A stretch of DNA of 64,000 nt, from sequence record OR062947.1. One strand, 5' to 3'. Positions 9,034-33,392 of the stretch are shown here, piece by piece; the first letter of the stretch is position 1; each line of letters opens with the position of its first letter. Below the pieces are notes generated by a model that worked only from the letters and a program-made list of their open reading frames with translations, searched no databases and was not told the DNA's origin. The stretch is from Escherichia phage 348Ecol098PP. The position numbers were made by a program, and so were the translations under genes.

Positions 9034-9107
9034 GGCCCTGTAGCTCAACGGTTAGCAGCAGTCCCCTCATAAGGGAAAGGTTACCAGTTCGAATCTGGTC
9101 TGGGTCA
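9034..9107 (+). tRNA. tRNA with CAU anticodon (Ile2 or Met)
   Basis: Hand-folded cloverleaf: acceptor GGCCCTG/CTGGGTC (one mismatch), D-loop with GG, anticodon loop CTCATAA, T-arm ACCAG-TTCGAAT-CTGGT; no encoded CCA. Confidence 0.6.
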
Positions 9108-9113
9108 TATATT

Positions 9114-9189
9114 CGAGGCATAGCTCAGAAGGAAGAGCAAGGACCTTCTAAGTCCTAGGTCGTAGGTTCGATCCCTACTGTCTCGACCA
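9114..9189 (+). tRNA. tRNA-Arg (anticodon UCU)
   Basis: Hand-folded: acceptor CGAGGCA/TGTCTCG, D-arm GCTC-AGAAGGAA-GAGC, anticodon loop CTTCTAA, T-arm GTAGG-TTCGATC-CCTAC, encoded CCA. Confidence 0.8.
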
Positions 9190-13251: not shown

Positions 13252-13557
13252 ATGAGTAAGATTATTGAAATTAAAGTACCAGAGTTTAATGATGCCAAAT
13301 CCGCTTCAGATGCAATTTATAAACTTCTGAATCAAGCTGAACGTATCGAAGAAGAAGCAACAAAGATCGCAGACCAATATGCCGTATCATTTTCTGTAGG
13401 TGATTATGGTAGCGGTCGTACTTATTATCCTAAGGGTGAAATCGTATCCCAGTGGATGAAAAATGAAATTGAAAATAATGGTGGCGATGTTAAGCGTGAA
13501 GGTAATGGTTACGTTATTACTGAAGGTGCTTGGGTTTCGTCTTCTGCGTTGTGCTAA
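13252..13557 (+). CDS. small protein, paralog 1 of 3 (C-terminal WVSSSxxC motif)
   Basis: Ends ...GAWVSSSALC. Confidence 0.6.
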   Translation: MSKIIEIKVPEFNDAKSASDAIYKLLNQAERIEEEATKIADQYAVSFSVGDYGSGRTYYPKGEIVSQWMKNEIENNGGDVKREGNGYVITEGAWVSSSALC

Positions 13558-13566
13558 GGAATCATT

Positions 13567-13839
13567 ATGTCTAAAGAACAAACCGAACTGGCTGAAGCTG
13601 TAGCAAAAATCTATGCAGCTATTGAGGCTGCCAAAGAAATTGCTGATAAACAAAACACAACATTCGACTTGCACCCAGCTTATGGTATGGGTGGAACCTA
13701 TCATTCACCCGGACATCTTAAAGCCGATCTTGAACGTTGTACAAAAAACGGCTATGCTGAATGGGCTGACGTTTACCAATACGACTACAACCTGAGCCTC
13801 GAAACTGGTGGTTGGGTCGCATCTTCTCACACTTGCTAA
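13567..13839 (+). CDS. small protein, paralog 2 of 3
   Basis: Ends ...GGWVASSHTC. Confidence 0.6.
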   Translation: MSKEQTELAEAVAKIYAAIEAAKEIADKQNTTFDLHPAYGMGGTYHSPGHLKADLERCTKNGYAEWADVYQYDYNLSLETGGWVASSHTC

Positions 13840-13848
13840 GGAAACTAT

Positions 13849-14046
13849 ATGTCTCGTGAATTAGATTGTGCTGTACGTACCGCAGTAGCTGCCCTGGAAA
13901 ACCTGTTCCAAATTGCAACAGAAGAACGCGAAGAAGTTACATTGTGGATTGAAGATAACGCAGGTCTGAATCTCCAGGACGCGATCTCATTATCCCACAA
14001 TAGTATCACTGTTCAAGGCTGGGTATCATCTAGTTATTCTTGCTAA
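13849..14046 (+). CDS. small protein, paralog 3 of 3
   Basis: Ends ...QGWVSSSYSC. Confidence 0.6.
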   Translation: MSRELDCAVRTAVAALENLFQIATEEREEVTLWIEDNAGLNLQDAISLSHNSITVQGWVSSSYSC

Positions 14047-14376: not shown

Positions 14377-15333
14377 ATGATGTTAGTTATTGGTTCTCGT
14401 GCACTTCACTATCACGGTCTTATTGATTCTAGCGCTATCAAAAATAGTGATTGGGACTTTATTGCGGACCAAGGTTCTTGGAATGCATTCAAAAATCAAA
14501 TGATGGGTGTATATGTTCACCAAGATAACCCTAATGTTCAAGTTTTCAAATGCTTCCATAATGGACGCGAAACTCATTTTGAAGCATATATTGTTCCGGC
14601 AATCACTAATGTCCGTGAATTAGTCGGTGAACTCACTCCTGAAGATTTCACGTCTTCTTATGACCTTTTAAAATACGCCAAGAAAAATTTGACTAAAGAC
14701 CGTTTGAACGGGTTTTACTGGGCAACTCCTGAGATATGTCTTGCAATTAAGATGTCTCATCGTTTCAAGAAAAATAATCCATTCTTTTTAAAGACTATGA
14801 ACCATATTCAGTATCTTCGTGGTAAAGGTGTTACACTGAACGATGAACTTACTGAAATTATGCTGAAACGCCAGAAAGAAACCTTGAACTATGCTCACCC
14901 AGTTCTTGACACTTCTAAAAGTGCGTTCTTTAAAGATGACATCTATACATATGACCATGATACTATTCATGAAGCCATTGCACTAACAGACCGTCCAGCG
15001 TATACATTTTATATGAAAGATGGTTCTGAAGTCATGACCTCACGCGAGAAGTTCGAATCGTTACCCGAAATGATTAAACTGGCTGGTGTATACGAAGAAT
15101 CATGTGTACTAGCATTAGAACGTTCTCAAATTCCTAATGACTTTAAAATTAACCCTGAAGCCAGTTTTATGATGGCATTGGAAAAAGTCTGTACAAGCAT
15201 CACCTCCGGTTGGTTCCGTGAATACGCATACGAGAACTATTATGAAGTAGTGGCTATGTATCATAAGCTCGGCAAAAATGATTACGTCAAACGTTTCAAA
15301 CAAAATTTCCATATGGTAAAACCTTTCAAATAA
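14377..15333 (+). CDS. hypothetical protein, possible nucleotidyltransferase fold
   Basis: N-terminal GS-x17-DWD resembles a loosened pol-beta nucleotidyltransferase motif. Confidence 0.5.
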   Translation: MMLVIGSRALHYHGLIDSSAIKNSDWDFIADQGSWNAFKNQMMGVYVHQDNPNVQVFKCFHNGRETHFEAYIVPAITNVRELVGELTPEDFTSSYDLLKYAKKNLTKDRLNGFYWATPEICLAIKMSHRFKKNNPFFLKTMNHIQYLRGKGVTLNDELTEIMLKRQKETLNYAHPVLDTSKSAFFKDDIYTYDHDTIHEAIALTDRPAYTFYMKDGSEVMTSREKFESLPEMIKLAGVYEESCVLALERSQIPNDFKINPEASFMMALEKVCTSITSGWFREYAYENYYEVVAMYHKLGKNDYVKRFKQNFHMVKPFK

Positions 15334-25607: not shown

Positions 25608-25645
25608 TTTACAACTTGGTAGGACTATGTTATAGTAGTCCTACC
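25607..25645 (+). promoter_or_regulatory. early promoter in 10-bp perfect inverted repeat (PeSL)
   Basis: GTTTACA; ggtaggacta/tagtcctacc flanking tgttatag. Confidence 0.55.
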
Positions 25646-25663: not shown

Positions 25664-25774
25664 AATGAAACTTTTGCTTATCGCTTATGTTGTAGTACAA
25701 TACAATTATCCGATGTTTACGTATAACATGGTAAATGGTATAATGAATCTTATTGAAGCGAGTATGGTAAAATG
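25664..25774 (+). CDS. possible 36-aa micro-ORF
   Basis: Strong SD aaatggag; region also contains promoter-like GTTTAC-N18-TATAAT, so may be non-coding. Confidence 0.25.
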
Positions 25775-26427: not shown

Positions 26428-26901
26428 ATGATTATCAATGAAAACTCTTGGCACTTTAAAATTTATGCAGCGTTCAATAGTACATGGAATCGTCCGAAAA
26501 CGTTGTGTGCTTATTTTTGGAAAACGTTAATCCCGGTATTGGCTGCTTCAATTATTGGATTTGCGATTTTAGCAGCAGTCACAATCATTGGCCAGGAAAT
26601 TTTAACTAAATTCTTTGTTTTTAGCAGTCTATGGACATTAGTTCCAGCCTCAATTGGTGTAGGCATTTTAATGGTAGCAGTCATGGCTTTTATTGCTACT
26701 GGGTTGGTAATTGGTCCGTCTTGGTTGTTAGACAAATATAACGACAGAAAATATTATAAAGAAATTGAGCTCATTGCACAAAACCAAGAACGAATTAAAA
26801 ATGGACTTGAGCCTATTGAACGTAAGAAATCATTAATAGGTGAATACCTTAAAGCTCGTAAAGAAAAAGTCTGTCCTACTCTTGAATATAAGGCTAAATG
26901 A
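26428..26901 (+). CDS. integral membrane protein
   Basis: Several hydrophobic TM segments. Confidence 0.6.
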   Translation: MIINENSWHFKIYAAFNSTWNRPKTLCAYFWKTLIPVLAASIIGFAILAAVTIIGQEILTKFFVFSSLWTLVPASIGVGILMVAVMAFIATGLVIGPSWLLDKYNDRKYYKEIELIAQNQERIKNGLEPIERKKSLIGEYLKARKEKVCPTLEYKAK

Positions 26902-27887
26902 TGAAAACAATTATGAAAGGCTACTTTGGTAGCCACCTTTATGGAACGTCTACTCCTGAATCTGACGTCGATTTTAAAGAAATTTATGTCCCTCATGCTC
27001 GTGATATCTTGACCGGTAACGTTAAAGAACACATGAGCAAGAACACGAATAACACATCTTCTAAGAACACAAAAGACGACGTGGACCATGAGTTGTATAG
27101 TCTCAAATATTTCTTTAAACTAGCTGCGGATGGTGAAACCGTCGCATTAGATATGCTTCACACTCCACCAAGTCTAGTAGTTAAATCTGATTTGCCTGAT
27201 GTATGGAAGTATATTCAAGATAACAGGTCTCGTTTCTATACCACTAACATGAAATCTTATTTAGGGTATGTCCGTAAGCAAGCTTCTAAATATGGTGTCA
27301 AGGGTTCTCGACTGGCTGTTCTTCGTCAAGCCCTTAAACGTTCTAATGAATGGGGACAATACTTTGATAATGGTGCAGTAATTCGTTTATCACATATGAA
27401 GAATGTTCTGCCTGTAGGTGAATTTGCTTCGTGGGTTGAAACCGAAAACGAGAAAACAGGTAAGCAAACATTCTATAATCTGTTAGACCGTAAATTCCAA
27501 GACACATTAACCAATAAAGAGTTCAATGCCATCCTGGTTAAACTGGAAGAGAACTATGGTGAACGTGCTCGTAAGGCAGAAGCTAACGAAGGTATTGACT
27601 GGAAAGCATTGAGTCATGCATGTCGTGGTGGACTTCAACTATTGGAAATTTACAAAACCGACGACCTGGTTTACCCACTTCAGGATGCTCCATTTATTCT
27701 CGATGTTAAGCTTGGTAAACATACATTTAAAACTGTACAAGAATTCCTAGAAGATATCGTTGACCAAGTTGAACAAGCATCAGAACAAGCCGCTAAGAAC
27801 GGTATGCAACAAAAAGTAGATATGAGTTTCTGGGATGATTTCCTTGAGCAAGTCTATCTCGAAAATCATAATTCTTACTATAAATAA
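26898..27887 (+). CDS. nucleotidyltransferase-fold protein
   Basis: N-terminal GS-x10-DVD (pol-beta superfamily NTase motif hG[GS]...DhD). Confidence 0.6.
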   Translation: MMKTIMKGYFGSHLYGTSTPESDVDFKEIYVPHARDILTGNVKEHMSKNTNNTSSKNTKDDVDHELYSLKYFFKLAADGETVALDMLHTPPSLVVKSDLPDVWKYIQDNRSRFYTTNMKSYLGYVRKQASKYGVKGSRLAVLRQALKRSNEWGQYFDNGAVIRLSHMKNVLPVGEFASWVETENEKTGKQTFYNLLDRKFQDTLTNKEFNAILVKLEENYGERARKAEANEGIDWKALSHACRGGLQLLEIYKTDDLVYPLQDAPFILDVKLGKHTFKTVQEFLEDIVDQVEQASEQAAKNGMQQKVDMSFWDDFLEQVYLENHNSYYK

Positions 27888-28204: not shown

Positions 28205-28224
28205 GGGGACCTTCGGGTCCCTTT
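28205..28224 (+). terminator. rho-independent terminator
   Basis: gggacc-ttcg-ggtccc + TTT. Confidence 0.65.
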
Positions 28225-28249
28225 AGGGGGTTAAAATATTTAAAAAAGT

Positions 28250-28285: not shown

Positions 28286-28317
28286 ATCGAAACGAAATGA
28301 GTAAATTGGAGAATAAA

Positions 28318-29298
28318 ATGTTCAACGTTCAAATCAAAAAAGGTATCTATCGTAATAACGAAATCTCTGGTTCTTATGTTGCCACAAAGACCTGGTTCCC
28401 GGCAAAGCTTAATCCTGAATGTTCCCACTTAGGTGATGGTAAAATTTTCGTTATTATTGATGGTTCTGAACGTGGAGTATGGGTCTTCAAATCAGACATC
28501 GTAATGGAAGGAGTTGAGACATCACCAGTTGCAGTTGTTGAAAGCACTGAAGATATGAAAACTCGTATCAACAAACGCTTTAAAGTAATGAACATGATGA
28601 CGAATGGCATTATCGATGGCAAAATTCGTTCACTCATTATTTCAGGTGCAGCCGGTATTGGTAAGACGTATTCTCTGGATAAAGCACTTAATAATGCTAA
28701 TGATAATGGTTTCATCAAATACAAAAGCATTAATGGTAAAATCTCTGGTATTGGCCTTTACGAACAACTTTGGCTCAACCGTGATGCAGACAGCGTTCTC
28801 TTAATCGACGACGTTGACGTATTCTCAGATATGGACATCTTGAACCTTCTTAAAGCAGCATTAGATACAGGCGATAAACGCAAAGTTTGTTGGAGCACTG
28901 CGTCATCTTATCTCGAGGATAAGGGTATTGATAAAGAATTTGAGTTTGAAGGTACTATCGTTTTCATTACAAACGTTGATATAGATAAAGAGTTAGAACG
29001 GGGTTCGAAACTTGCTCCACACCTTCAAGCTTTAGTATCTCGTTCAGTGTATCTCGACCTTGGAGTACACTCTAATGAAGAGATTATGGTTCGAGTTGAA
29101 GATGTAATATTATCTACTGACATGATGCAGAAACGTGGTCTGACGGATGCAGAAACGTATAAAGCATTGTCCTGGATGAAGGCTAATGTATCTCGTCTTC
29201 GCAATGTATCATTACGTACCGCTCTTTATGTAGCAGATTTTATTTCAACTGATAAAGATGGTTGGGAGGAAATCTCTGAAGTAACTTTACTGAAATAA
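28318..29298 (+). CDS. P-loop ATPase (Walker A/B) with N-terminal extra domain
   Basis: Walker A SGAAGIGKT, Walker B VLLIDDVD. Confidence 0.65.
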   Translation: MFNVQIKKGIYRNNEISGSYVATKTWFPAKLNPECSHLGDGKIFVIIDGSERGVWVFKSDIVMEGVETSPVAVVESTEDMKTRINKRFKVMNMMTNGIIDGKIRSLIISGAAGIGKTYSLDKALNNANDNGFIKYKSINGKISGIGLYEQLWLNRDADSVLLIDDVDVFSDMDILNLLKAALDTGDKRKVCWSTASSYLEDKGIDKEFEFEGTIVFITNVDIDKELERGSKLAPHLQALVSRSVYLDLGVHSNEEIMVRVEDVILSTDMMQKRGLTDAETYKALSWMKANVSRLRNVSLRTALYVADFISTDKDGWEEISEVTLLK

Positions 29299-30371: not shown

Positions 30372-31367
30372 ATGAGCATTACATCTGATGCGGTAAAACA
30401 TGAAATTAACGGTTTATGTGCTTCACAGATTAAAGTGTGGTTTAAAGACCATAACGATCGCAGAGCACTTAATTATGAACAAATTGCTATCCAAGTTCAT
30501 CAATTACTGGTTAGTAAATTTGATTTTCATATGCCGTCTGAAATCTATACTAATCTGCCGCGAGCACTTATTAAAGCGTGTAAAGGTTATGGAAAATCAA
30601 TGGCTGATGGAATCTTCAGCGCGCTGAATAAACTTAACGTTCTGTCGATGATTAACTCTAACAACATCCTGCGTAATCTAGGACGTACTGATTTGTTCGG
30701 CCGTGAACAGTGTAAAATGCCTTTGAAATGGATTGTTGCTCATCTTAACGAGAACCAAACACGTTTTATGGCCGTAACAGCACGCTTACAAATGGGCCTA
30801 GATCGTCAGATGAACTTTAAAACTCATCCACGTTATTCAGGTTCAACTGACTTTTATAAATGTGAGCTTCAAAAGGTTGCAGGTAAAACTGTCTTAGTAG
30901 TTCGTGTAACGTTTGAAGGACGACGTCAAGGATATTTTGACATAATCGGCTCCGGGCTTAAACATTGTGGATTTATCGACGAAGTTGATATCAAGCGAGA
31001 CGGCATTGGATACCGTATTGGATATGTTTGTACTCTTAAAGAAGAGATTTCAGGACCAGCACCAGGACTAAAAGACGTTAGATATAAAGACGAGCTCGTT
31101 GAAGAAATAAAAGAAGTTGAATATGATATCAACCAAGAAGATGCTCTTAAAGACCTTATTGATGAACCGAACCAAGACGTTATTCCTGTTCAGAAATTTG
31201 AATCAAAACATGCTGAGCAAATCAAATACTTTGAAGCTTTGATTAACGAACTTAATGTAACTATTCAACAGACTGACGATGAAATCTCACGATTAGCAGG
31301 TTTAAACGGTAAAAATAAAACAGAACGAGCTAATCTTATTCAGGTAGTAAAACTTCTTAAGGAATGA
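30372..31367 (+). CDS. hypothetical protein with C-terminal coiled coil (array member 1)
   Basis: 331 aa. Confidence 0.6.
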   Translation: MSITSDAVKHEINGLCASQIKVWFKDHNDRRALNYEQIAIQVHQLLVSKFDFHMPSEIYTNLPRALIKACKGYGKSMADGIFSALNKLNVLSMINSNNILRNLGRTDLFGREQCKMPLKWIVAHLNENQTRFMAVTARLQMGLDRQMNFKTHPRYSGSTDFYKCELQKVAGKTVLVVRVTFEGRRQGYFDIIGSGLKHCGFIDEVDIKRDGIGYRIGYVCTLKEEISGPAPGLKDVRYKDELVEEIKEVEYDINQEDALKDLIDEPNQDVIPVQKFESKHAEQIKYFEALINELNVTIQQTDDEISRLAGLNGKNKTERANLIQVVKLLKE

Positions 31368-31396
31368 TGTACAACCAAGGATGGTTGGAGTATAAT
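31368..31396 (+). promoter_or_regulatory. early promoter TGTACA-N17-TATAAT (duplicated cassette)
   Basis: 27-nt tacaaccaaggatggttggagtataat identical at 32390-32416. Confidence 0.6.
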
Positions 31397-31422
31397 AAAT
31401 TTTTCAACATGAGGAATATAAA

Positions 31423-32382
31423 ATGGCTTTTATTACACGTAGAGAACTTATCAAAGAATTTACCTCGAACGCATATACTCCAGGACCTAATCCTATCCGT
31501 ATGCCTGTAAAGACTCCTGAAGAGATTGAGGAAATCTGTTCATATTATGGGATTACTTCTCGTAAGTTTACTCAATTTGAATGCGTTACTAACACACCCG
31601 TTAAAGAGTTCATTAAAAATGGCGAGTTCAGCCGTTTATTGGCCAAACAGAAACTTCGTAATTTTTGTATTGGCGGTGAAGGACAATATTTCGCTAAGCA
31701 GTTCCGGAATAACCTTAACAATCTGATGGCCATTGCTTCTCGTATTCGTCCTCAAGCAATTAACATGAAACATTTGAAATATACTTACGATAAGTTGGAA
31801 ATCATGGTTATCAGTGAGAACGAGTTCACTCTCACGTATAAACCTAAGAATGATAACGTTGCTCGTGTATTCCACCAAGCGTTGGAAGTTTTAGGTGATA
31901 ATATTCACCAGATTAAAGCAATTTATTCTCGTGAGCTTAATATTATCGACCCTATCAAGAATAAGGGCCATATCGCTATCCAAGCTCGTGTATCTATTGG
32001 TAAAAAGGTTCCTGCGCCATGGTGGCACAAAGACTCTGAATACTATCAAAATCTTAAAAAGGAAAATGCATTGTTTGAAGGCAATATTACAGCAACACCA
32101 GTCGGTAATGCAGAGGTTCTAGGCGCATATTCTCCAGCACAATCTGGTATGTTTAAAGGTTTGCCAAATGTGTGCAAACTGTCGGCAGTAAAACTAAATG
32201 TTTCTAATGACCTTCTTCCGGCCGAAGATTATCATTACAACCAAATCAAGGCTACTGTAGACCAACTGTCCGTTGAACTTGACAAAGCACAAGCTAAGCT
32301 TCGTGATGCTCAACAGGTGGTGACCAATCTCCAGTTGCAGTACTCTAAACTTTTTAACGCAATGAATGCATTAAAATCATAA
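31423..32382 (+). CDS. hypothetical protein with C-terminal coiled coil (array member 2)
   Basis: 319 aa. Confidence 0.6.
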   Translation: MAFITRRELIKEFTSNAYTPGPNPIRMPVKTPEEIEEICSYYGITSRKFTQFECVTNTPVKEFIKNGEFSRLLAKQKLRNFCIGGEGQYFAKQFRNNLNNLMAIASRIRPQAINMKHLKYTYDKLEIMVISENEFTLTYKPKNDNVARVFHQALEVLGDNIHQIKAIYSRELNIIDPIKNKGHIAIQARVSIGKKVPAPWWHKDSEYYQNLKKENALFEGNITATPVGNAEVLGAYSPAQSGMFKGLPNVCKLSAVKLNVSNDLLPAEDYHYNQIKATVDQLSVELDKAQAKLRDAQQVVTNLQLQYSKLFNAMNALKS

Positions 32383-32387
32383 AATAG

Positions 32388-32416
32388 TTTACAACCAAGG
32401 ATGGTTGGAGTATAAT
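32388..32416 (+). promoter_or_regulatory. early promoter GTTTACA-N17-TATAAT (duplicated cassette)
   Basis: Near-identical to 31368-31396. Confidence 0.6.
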
Positions 32417-32444
32417 GAATCTATCTTAACGAGAGGAAAATATT

Positions 32445-33392
32445 ATGACACGTTCACATTACATTGAATACTTTGCAGGTCTTATCGCTAACGCTCACGC
32501 TCAACGTGCTACTGGTGCTTGGACTGATGTTCCACATAAAGGTGTGGTTTATAGTATTCTTCGTGATTTTCTTACATACACAGGCCAAGAAAATCATATC
32601 TGTAAAGATACTCAAAATGCATATTCTCATTCATTAGGGACACTGCTTCAATGGTTCAAACGTTCTCGTTTATTATCTTCTACTGTAGCTCGCGATAACA
32701 TTAAAAACTTTATGAAGCCGAGCTTTATTAAATCTGTGACATCTAAAACCGATTTGGTTGAATTCACTATTGTTAATGATGTTAAAAAGACTCATTTGGC
32801 TGATTGGTTATCTACCATTCCTGAAACTAAATTTGCTGATAAATTTGCTTGTGAATTCAATAACCAAGTGAATATGCTTTTTAAACATTCTCGTAAATTA
32901 TTCACAGGCGGCGATGATCGTACAAATACAGTTCATGCTAAAGATTGGGTTACTGCAGTGTTCAAACCAACCGGTAATGGTACCGCATCATTATCAATTG
33001 ATATTCAGGTTCCTTATTATTACTCACGTAATCTCGGCACCATGAAAGCTGAAGAAATTAAGAAGCACAATAAAACCATTCGTTCGTTGTCTTATAAACT
33101 TCGCATGATGTTAAGAATCATGGACGTGGTAGAAATGTATGATGAAACCGAAGATAACGGTTCAATGTTATACAGTTCTCGCATTCAAATTAAGTTGAAG
33201 AACCCTAACGAGTATAAGCCTAAGCCTATTAAAGAGCCTAAAGCAGAAAAAGTTGATAACTTAAGAGAAGAACGCGAATATCTCAAATCTCGTCTGAAAG
33301 AAGTCGAAGCCCAGATTGCAGAACAAACTAAATCGTTAAAAGCTCTGAATGCGAAAGCGGATGGTTTACGAAATGCCATTGAGGTGTTATAA
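32445..33392 (+). CDS. hypothetical protein with C-terminal coiled coil (array member 3)
   Basis: 315 aa. Confidence 0.6.
   Translation: MTRSHYIEYFAGLIANAHAQRATGAWTDVPHKGVVYSILRDFLTYTGQENHICKDTQNAYSHSLGTLLQWFKRSRLLSSTVARDNIKNFMKPSFIKSVTSKTDLVEFTIVNDVKKTHLADWLSTIPETKFADKFACEFNNQVNMLFKHSRKLFTGGDDRTNTVHAKDWVTAVFKPTGNGTASLSIDIQVPYYYSRNLGTMKAEEIKKHNKTIRSLSYKLRMMLRIMDVVEMYDETEDNGSMLYSSRIQIKLKNPNEYKPKPIKEPKAEKVDNLREEREYLKSRLKEVEAQIAEQTKSLKALNAKADGLRNAIEVL

Follow-up and report, generated by a model that had tools for sequence, protein, structure and literature searches.

The repair of cleaved tRNA by Pnkp and Rnl1 of bacteriophage T4 is a classic phage counter-defence, and to our knowledge this pathway has no known answer to nucleases like RloC that cut and also remove a nucleotide. 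Here we analyze a nucleotidyltransferase (NTase) gene located at positions 26898-27887, on the plus strand, of a 64,000-nucleotide stretch of DNA from Escherichia phage 348Ecol098PP (sequence record OR062947.1; the whole stretch is referred to as the window), together with a second NTase gene at positions 14377-15333. The 329-amino-acid (aa) product of the former is an ortholog of T4 NrdC.11 and a long-subtype member of the RlaP family, and probably acts in RNA repair.

Two Pseudomonas RlaPs (from P. fluorescens and P. aeruginosa), encoded between rtcB and rtcA, add one to two nucleoside or deoxynucleoside monophosphates (NMPs or dNMPs) to the 3'-OH of RNA, are inactive on DNA and protein, and favour Mn2+ or Co2+ as well as the 3' end of a mimic of a cleaved anticodon loop (Carruthers et al., December 2025 preprint; PMC12776372). 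These enzymes also partly restored the aminoacylation of a tRNA short of one loop nucleotide, and the preprint authors propose that RlaP is an antidote to ribotoxins like RloC that remove a nucleotide after cutting (PMC12776372). The 3'-OH product of RlaP fits ligases that use a 5'-phosphate, such as T4 Rnl1, rather than RtcB, and T4 NrdC.11 was placed in cluster 5 of the RlaP similarity network, with the studied enzymes in cluster 1a (PMC12776372). A 2021 survey predicted that phage RlaPs restore lost nucleotides ahead of ligation, and the nucleotide-refilling idea for phage enzymes has been proposed in two publications (PMC7824862, PMC12776372). Both the family assignment and the proposed role of the NrdC.11/RlaP gene are therefore already in print, and our finding is correct and ordinary in kind; what we add is that long-subtype genes can have RNA-repair genes as neighbours, that they are frequently paired in tandem with canonical RlaP, that the C-terminal half of the long type diverges, and that the second protein has a MenT-like fold. 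Our literature search on NrdC.11 found no experimental work beyond genome descriptions.

The 329-residue protein is a long-subtype RlaP nucleotidyltransferase

The open reading frame (ORF) at 26898-27887 encodes a protein that starts MMKTIMKGYFGSHLYGTSTPESDVDF, in which G11-S12 is followed by ten residues and then D23-V24-D25 (catalytic motif at 26928-26972, plus strand). Many GenBank records use a 328-aa form, which results from a second in-frame ATG at 26901, and some GenBank records label the protein 'RNA repair pathway DNA polymerase beta'. The protein matched the Pfam family RlaP (PF10127) with an E value of 2.8e-12 and a score of 47.3 bits, against a cutoff of 23, over residues 7-140, corresponding to profile positions 23-147 of 249, and matched PHROG 388, 'nucleotidyltransferase', with an E value of 3e-125. 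As both families were recovered, the motif is not a chance occurrence. PDB sequence searches with single proteins and profiles returned nothing relevant for this protein or the second NTase, and scans with PADLOC and NCBIfam returned nothing useful for either.

A search of 1.84 billion cluster representatives (a 50%-identity library) revealed 3098 relatives of the 329-aa protein, 724 of them at E <= 1e-30. Conservation was read from an alignment of 99 sequences whose members are 33-52% identical to the query, and PF10127 was matched by all but one of these 99 diverse relatives. Residues G11, S12, S22, D23, D25, N57, D63, Y132, R243, and G273 are invariant in this alignment, while K27, D61, D85, Q128, K131, and H240 are conserved in at least 90% of its members. 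The protein thus carries the pol-beta signature hG[GS]...[DE]x[DE] and a third carboxylate, all at conserved positions. The strand bearing the third carboxylate (D61, D63) and a conserved LDMLH element (D85) are encoded at 27078-27152 (plus strand) and were assigned from alignment conservation, the predicted strand, and hhalign.

An AlphaFold2 model built on the 99-sequence alignment (predicted local distance difference test score, pLDDT, 93.9; predicted template-modelling score, pTM, 0.84) comprises an alpha/beta NTase core up to approximately residue 115, a helical segment at 119-155, a beta insertion at 177-201, and a helical C-terminal domain at 206-328, with D63 placed on a predicted strand spanning residues 62-68. 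The insertion (27426-27500, plus strand) lies within the helical region and is formed by three modelled strands, 177-184, 188-195, and 198-201, where sequence conservation is weak. The C-terminal domain (27513-27881, plus strand), delimited from the alignment and the model, contains conserved YGxRA...DWKAxSHAxR motifs. Comparison of the long type with 13 short RlaPs using hhalign aligned residues 6-97 of the core alone (probability 93.8%, E = 1.8e-7), with D23/D25 falling onto SDYD of the canonical SGS...SDYD motif, D63 onto the invariant D72, and D85 onto the invariant E94; the canonical counterparts of the catalytic signature are S26/G27, D39/D41, and D72. No relationship between the C-terminal halves of long and canonical RlaP was detectable by hhalign, in a comparison made by sequence only, and the C-terminal region of the 329-aa protein, beyond the point at which the Pfam match ends (position 147 of 249), is predicted to be helical.

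Taken together, these analyses identify the 329-aa protein as a pol-beta-superfamily NTase fold with conserved catalytic carboxylates and as a long-type member of the RlaP family (PF10127). A preliminary description of the window, made from the sequence alone, had reported this ORF with its GS-x10-DVD signature and the 318-aa ORF with GS-x17-DWD at 14377-15333, and both read from the sequence exactly as it gave them. Its assignment of the two proteins to the pol-beta superfamily likewise holds, as an NTase core is predicted and the catalytic Asp residues are conserved, the core of the 329-aa protein having come from structure prediction, a check that the description itself had named.

The protein is the Mosigvirus ortholog of T4 NrdC.11

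At 98% identity, the window region matches the genomes of the Mosigvirus phages mogra, SA79RD, and ST0, and the phage is itself a Mosigvirus, an RB69/JS09-like member of the T4 group. Along its full length, the 329-aa protein shares 78% identity with T4 NrdC.11 (NP_049709, annotated 'nucleotidyltransferase'), whose gene occupies the same place, between a mobD.1/y05I-like gene and nrdC.10, on the same strand and in the same direction of transcription. Gene order in the window runs from tk and rI through small ORFs, a y05I/MobD.1-like gene, a membrane protein gene, the NTase gene, a gene for a small secreted protein, and the gene for an NrdC.10-like ATPase, onward to nrdC and gene 49; this corresponds to the T4 nrdC region, with conserved synteny tk - rI - nrdC.11 - nrdC.10 - nrdC - 49. 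Identity and synteny thus mark the 329-aa protein as the NrdC.11 ortholog of a Mosigvirus. By tblastn, a gene of the NrdC.11 type was found in 1526 phage records, nearly all of them T4-like.

Viral context was sampled at 79 IMG/VR loci carrying relatives at 40-99% identity, and neighbours within 3.5 kilobases (kb) were counted over 82 loci. A gene of the membrane protein family (PHROG 944 type) lies within this distance of the NTase gene at 47 of the 82 loci, and an NrdC.10-like ATPase gene, which is kept downstream, at 37. The membrane gene directly adjoins the NTase gene only in Mosigvirus, Dhakavirus, and some Tequatrovirus; elsewhere one to three genes are inserted between them, or the membrane gene is absent, as in distant phages and T4. 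We regard this arrangement as synteny, which does not by itself show a functional tie. A conserved operon of membrane protein and NTase, of the Hailong kind, was considered and rejected as a general feature across the 79 viral loci and the 80 bacterial and archaeal loci described below.

At other genome positions, the same phage lineage does have genes for Pnkp and Rnl1. Rnl1 was found in phage AV111 at 67% identity, and Pnkp in phages mar005P1 and Shf125875 at 74%; the NTases of AV111 and mar005P1, which thus carry Rnl1 or Pnkp as well, are at least 99% identical to that of the window. Tallied by genus, the phage records with NrdC.11, Pnkp, and Rnl1 are almost equally numerous for the T4-like hosts.

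Some bacterial and archaeal genes of the long subtype lie near RNA-repair genes

Full-length relatives of the long subtype, 33-52% identical and typically covering residues 2-320, were collected at 80 bacterial and archaeal genome loci. An RNA-repair gene is located within approximately 5 kb of the NTase gene at 22 of these loci, the genes being RtcB (10), bacterial Pnkp with a ligase domain (7), Hen1 (5), Ro60/TROVE (4), T4-type Pnkp (3), and RtcA (2), in addition to Rnl1-type ligases. When counting was restricted to the 48 loci flanked by 3 kb or more on each side, 15 had an RNA-repair gene, against our rough estimate of approximately one locus expected by chance. At one locus (L089; contig DAOUTL010000132.1, binned as Bathyarchaeota), the NTase, a T4-type Pnkp, and an Rnl1-like ligase are encoded on one strand within 3.8 kb of a 4-kb contig, which probably derives from a virus, was binned into a metagenome-assembled genome, and holds the complete T4 repair set in a single cluster. 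At another (L125), the gene for a kinase-phosphatase-Rnl1 fusion ends 4 nucleotides before the start of the NTase gene. The bacterial neighbourhoods tie the NrdC.11 subtype directly to RNA repair, independently of the Pseudomonas biochemistry.

At least two RlaP-family ORFs are present at 19 of the 80 loci. The usual tandem partner, in 16 cases (including L110, L143, and L162; range L091-L164), is a canonical short RlaP encoded directly downstream of the long type. These short partners are 255-290 aa in length (mostly 255-280) and, in the four that were scanned, match PF10127 from end to end with E values of 1e-51 to 1e-71, whereas the long type in tandem pairs matches only the first half of the family profile, with E values of approximately 1e-13 to 1e-16. 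Some of the long/short pairs lie inside RtcB/RtcA/Ro60 or Pnkp-Hen1 operons.

A probable role in refilling cleaved RNA before ligation

With moderate confidence, we favour the view that the 329-aa protein is a template-independent RNA 3'-end NTase that refills cleaved tRNA or other RNA before ligation. In such an enzyme, D23, D25, and D63 would hold two divalent metal ions, and one or a few NMPs would be moved from nucleoside triphosphates (NTPs) to the 3'-OH of a broken RNA without a template. For a tRNA that a host anticodon nuclease had cut and shortened by a nucleotide, end healing would fall to phage Pnkp, with removal of the 2',3'-cyclic phosphate, the NrdC.11-type enzyme would then replace the missing nucleotide and leave a 3'-OH, and phage Rnl1 (or Rnl2), which requires a 3'-OH and a 5'-phosphate, would seal the break last. 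Our data show the family membership, the conserved catalytic triad, the fold, and the bacterial linkage of the subtype to RNA-repair genes; that the substrate is RNA, how many nucleotides are added, and that the phage enzyme works with Pnkp and Rnl1 are inferences. If NrdC.11-type enzymes do refill the nucleotide, they would complete the Pnkp-Rnl1 pathway as its missing third member in approximately 1500 sequenced T4-like phages; as the refilling idea had already been proposed, the value of our analysis lies in confirmation and a sharper context.

Several observations weigh against this role. The nrdC.11-mobD.3 block of T4 can be deleted and is therefore dispensable (PMC9825161). No match to Pnkp, Rnl1, or Rnl2 was found in the window, and Pnkp or Rnl1 lies within 10 kb of the NTase gene at only 4 of the 79 viral loci, which indicates that in T4-type phages the NTase gene is not physically linked to repair genes; we accordingly rejected a close coupling of the gene to those for Pnkp, Rnl1, or Rnl2 in these phages. 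The matching genus counts fit co-occurrence but may also reflect mere shared ancestry of T4-like genomes. The characterised RlaPs lie in a cluster other than that of NrdC.11, and alignment to canonical RlaP is limited to residues 6-97 of the N-terminal core, with both the beta insertion and the C-terminal half being peculiar to the subtype. Finally, the tandem pairing suggests that long and short RlaP are not equivalent and provide two non-redundant activities or form a heteromer. The doubt that remains about a refilling role stems from the C-terminal half, which differs from that of the characterised enzymes, and from the retention of both types side by side in bacteria.

Because bacteria keep the long type beside canonical RlaP and because the closest solved fold is HalB of the Hailong system (PDB 9dbh), the NrdC.11 subtype might instead run a distinct reaction, either adding tails to RNA or DNA ends, processively or with deoxynucleotides, by which a phage could feed or decoy host immunity gated by DNA or oligonucleotides, or acting together with the co-transcribed membrane protein; we hold this to be very unlikely. 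Just as improbable, in our judgement, is that the protein is HalB-like and makes processive oligodeoxynucleotide or oligonucleotide chains, possibly primed by protein, either in a Hailong-like pair with the membrane protein or as a decoy that keeps DNA-gated host effectors shut. HalB is the top structural match of the 329-aa protein, and the upstream membrane gene overlaps the NTase gene, but identity to HalB is 16% and the profile of the 329-aa protein family fails to find HalB by sequence. The membrane gene is adjacent in some genera only, and the neighbours in bacteria are RNA-repair genes, with no recurring membrane protein family. In addition, the C-terminal tail is unconserved and gap-rich, with tyrosines that are frequent but unaligned, such that there is no conserved priming tyrosine, and PADLOC gave no match, though its 2023 library may predate Hailong.

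A CCA-like activity, in which the enzyme would mend or extend acceptor 3' ends damaged by toxins that target them, in tRNAs of the host or the phage, instead of refilling anticodon loops, fits the chemistry but is in our estimation unlikely, if less so than HalB-like synthesis. One relative, from Ruegeria phage RpAliso, is annotated 'tRNA nucleotidyltransferase', the phage has its own tRNA genes, and RlaP labels full-length tRNAs with low NTP specificity; the same study, however, found that canonical RlaP favours the 3' end of the cleaved loop over the acceptor end (PMC12776372). No CCA-enzyme or poly(A) polymerase family of Pfam (PolyA_pol head domain or related) matched the 329-aa protein at E <= 1, no CCA-adding enzyme was among its top structural neighbours, and the partners encoded nearby in genomes either ligate RNA or heal its ends. 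Nucleotidylation of a small molecule or protein, as by aminoglycoside and lincosamide NTases or MntA-type AMPylases, or the synthesis of a signalling nucleotide, would draw on a similarity that is generic to the NTase fold, and we give it the least credence of all.

Nucleotide refilling ahead of ligation thus remains the role that we favour, and it bears on the preliminary description, which had listed several roles and left the choice among them open. Nucleotide addition to RNA or tRNA ends, one of those listed, is supported by the family, the literature, and the genomic context, while signalling nucleotides and an AbiEii-like toxin are without support for the 329-aa protein; the resemblance to AbiEii applies instead to the 318-aa protein, at the level of the fold. 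As an ortholog of T4 NrdC.11 and a member of PF10127, the 329-aa protein has a role less open than had been stated.

Transcription signals and neighbouring genes

The gene directly upstream of the NTase gene (26428-26901, plus strand) encodes a 157-aa protein with three predicted transmembrane segments, assigned to PHROG 944 'membrane protein', and its stop codon overlaps the NTase start in the sequence ATGATG at 26898-26903. Further upstream, a consensus scan placed a promoter-like site, TTTACG-17-TATAAT with TG, before the y05I-like gene at 25716-25744 (plus strand), and a second at 25608-25636. In the nearly identical phage SA79RD, a T4 middle-promoter-like site is annotated slightly further upstream. 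No terminator was found between these promoter-like sites and the NTase gene, which agrees with the SA79RD annotation, and the NTase gene likely lies within an early or middle transcription unit, as judged from these sequence signals.

A T4 late-promoter box, TATAAATA, overlaps the NTase stop codon at 27879-27886 (plus strand) and corresponds to an annotated late promoter in SA79RD. It is followed by the gene for a 93-aa Gly/Ser-rich protein with a signal peptide and a weak YbgS-like match, and then by a GC hairpin, GGGACC-TTCG-GGTCCC, at approximately 28205-28232. The NrdC.10-like protein encoded next (28297-29298; 333 aa) has a Walker A motif, GAAGIGKT, and weak matches to AAA_22/AAA_16 and HTH_37. 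Further along, three successive genes of similar size at 30372-33392 (331, 319, and 315 aa) match PHROGs 2257, 2351, and 1435, all of which carry function-less labels; the middle gene belongs to DUF7235, and the trio stands where T4 has its nrdC.6/.5/.4/.3 block.

A second nucleotidyltransferase with a MenT-like fold

The 318-aa protein encoded at 14377-15333 (plus strand) starts MMLVIGSRALHYHGLIDSSAIKNSDWDF, in which G6-S7 is followed by 17 residues and then D25-W26-D27. It is an RB69ORF134c-like protein that matches DUF7277 (E = 5e-28) and DUF7275 (E = 8e-78) in Pfam, as well as PHROG 2141, so that its motif, too, is no chance occurrence; a PDB search with its profile gave no match. In an alignment of 54 homologs, G6, S7, D25, D27, and E69 are invariant, and the C-terminal invariants include K125, H128, H174, H194, D195, H198, E240, E241, C243, E248, and R249; this dense set of invariant His, Asp, Glu, and Cys residues in DUF7275 (residues 120-305) suggests a metal site. 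The protein is a real NTase fold, closest at fold level to the MenT/AbiEii toxins. By analogy to MenT, it is a reasonable guess, and no more, that it may nucleotidylate tRNA 3' ends.

The family was found in 733 phage records of several groups, and in many distant matches, from Acinetobacter, Streptomyces, Gordonia, and Vibrio phages, the C-terminal DUF7275 region alone aligns. There was no T4 record among 40 sampled matches, and a literature search on DUF7275 and DUF7277 found nothing. No AbiEi-type antitoxin was recognised beside the gene, a Pfam scan of the neighbouring ORFs being empty. Just upstream, at 13252-14046, three tandem ORFs (101, 90, and 65 aa) share a C-terminal G-x-W-V-[SA]-S-S-x-x-C motif, look like a paralogous trio, and match no Pfam family. 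Two phage tRNA genes, for tRNA-Met (CAT) and tRNA-Arg (TCT), are located at 9034-9189, approximately 5 kb upstream of the MenT-like NTase gene. This undescribed phage NTase, with its combination of DUF7277 and DUF7275, and the tandem long/short RlaPs of bacteria might both repay further work.

Comparison with known systems

The 318-aa protein shares the NTase fold and a conserved catalytic triad with MenT/AbiEii (DUF1814), but has no AbiEii/DUF1814 match in Pfam or PADLOC and instead combines DUF7277 with the His/Asp/Glu-rich C-terminal domain of DUF7275. HalB resembles the 329-aa protein in structure, although a link at the sequence level was undetected and the 329-aa protein lacks a conserved priming tyrosine; moreover, Hailong has an obligate HalA-type membrane partner, whereas the 329-aa protein has no consistently adjacent membrane gene. 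The T4 locus differs from that of the window in carrying the homing-endonuclease gene mobD directly upstream of nrdC.11, where the window phage, some Tequatrovirus, and Dhakavirus have the gene for the three-transmembrane protein. Relative to canonical RlaP of P. fluorescens and P. aeruginosa, the NrdC.11 type is longer (310-350 versus 255-270 aa), has the beta insertion as a feature of its own, and falls into cluster 5 rather than 1a of the similarity network (PMC12776372). The two types nevertheless belong to one Pfam family, PF10127, with a common GS...DxD...D core and the same overall plan, the NTase at the N-terminus and a helical region behind it, which in the 329-aa protein is a predicted one, and in bacteria both are found in RNA-repair gene neighbourhoods.

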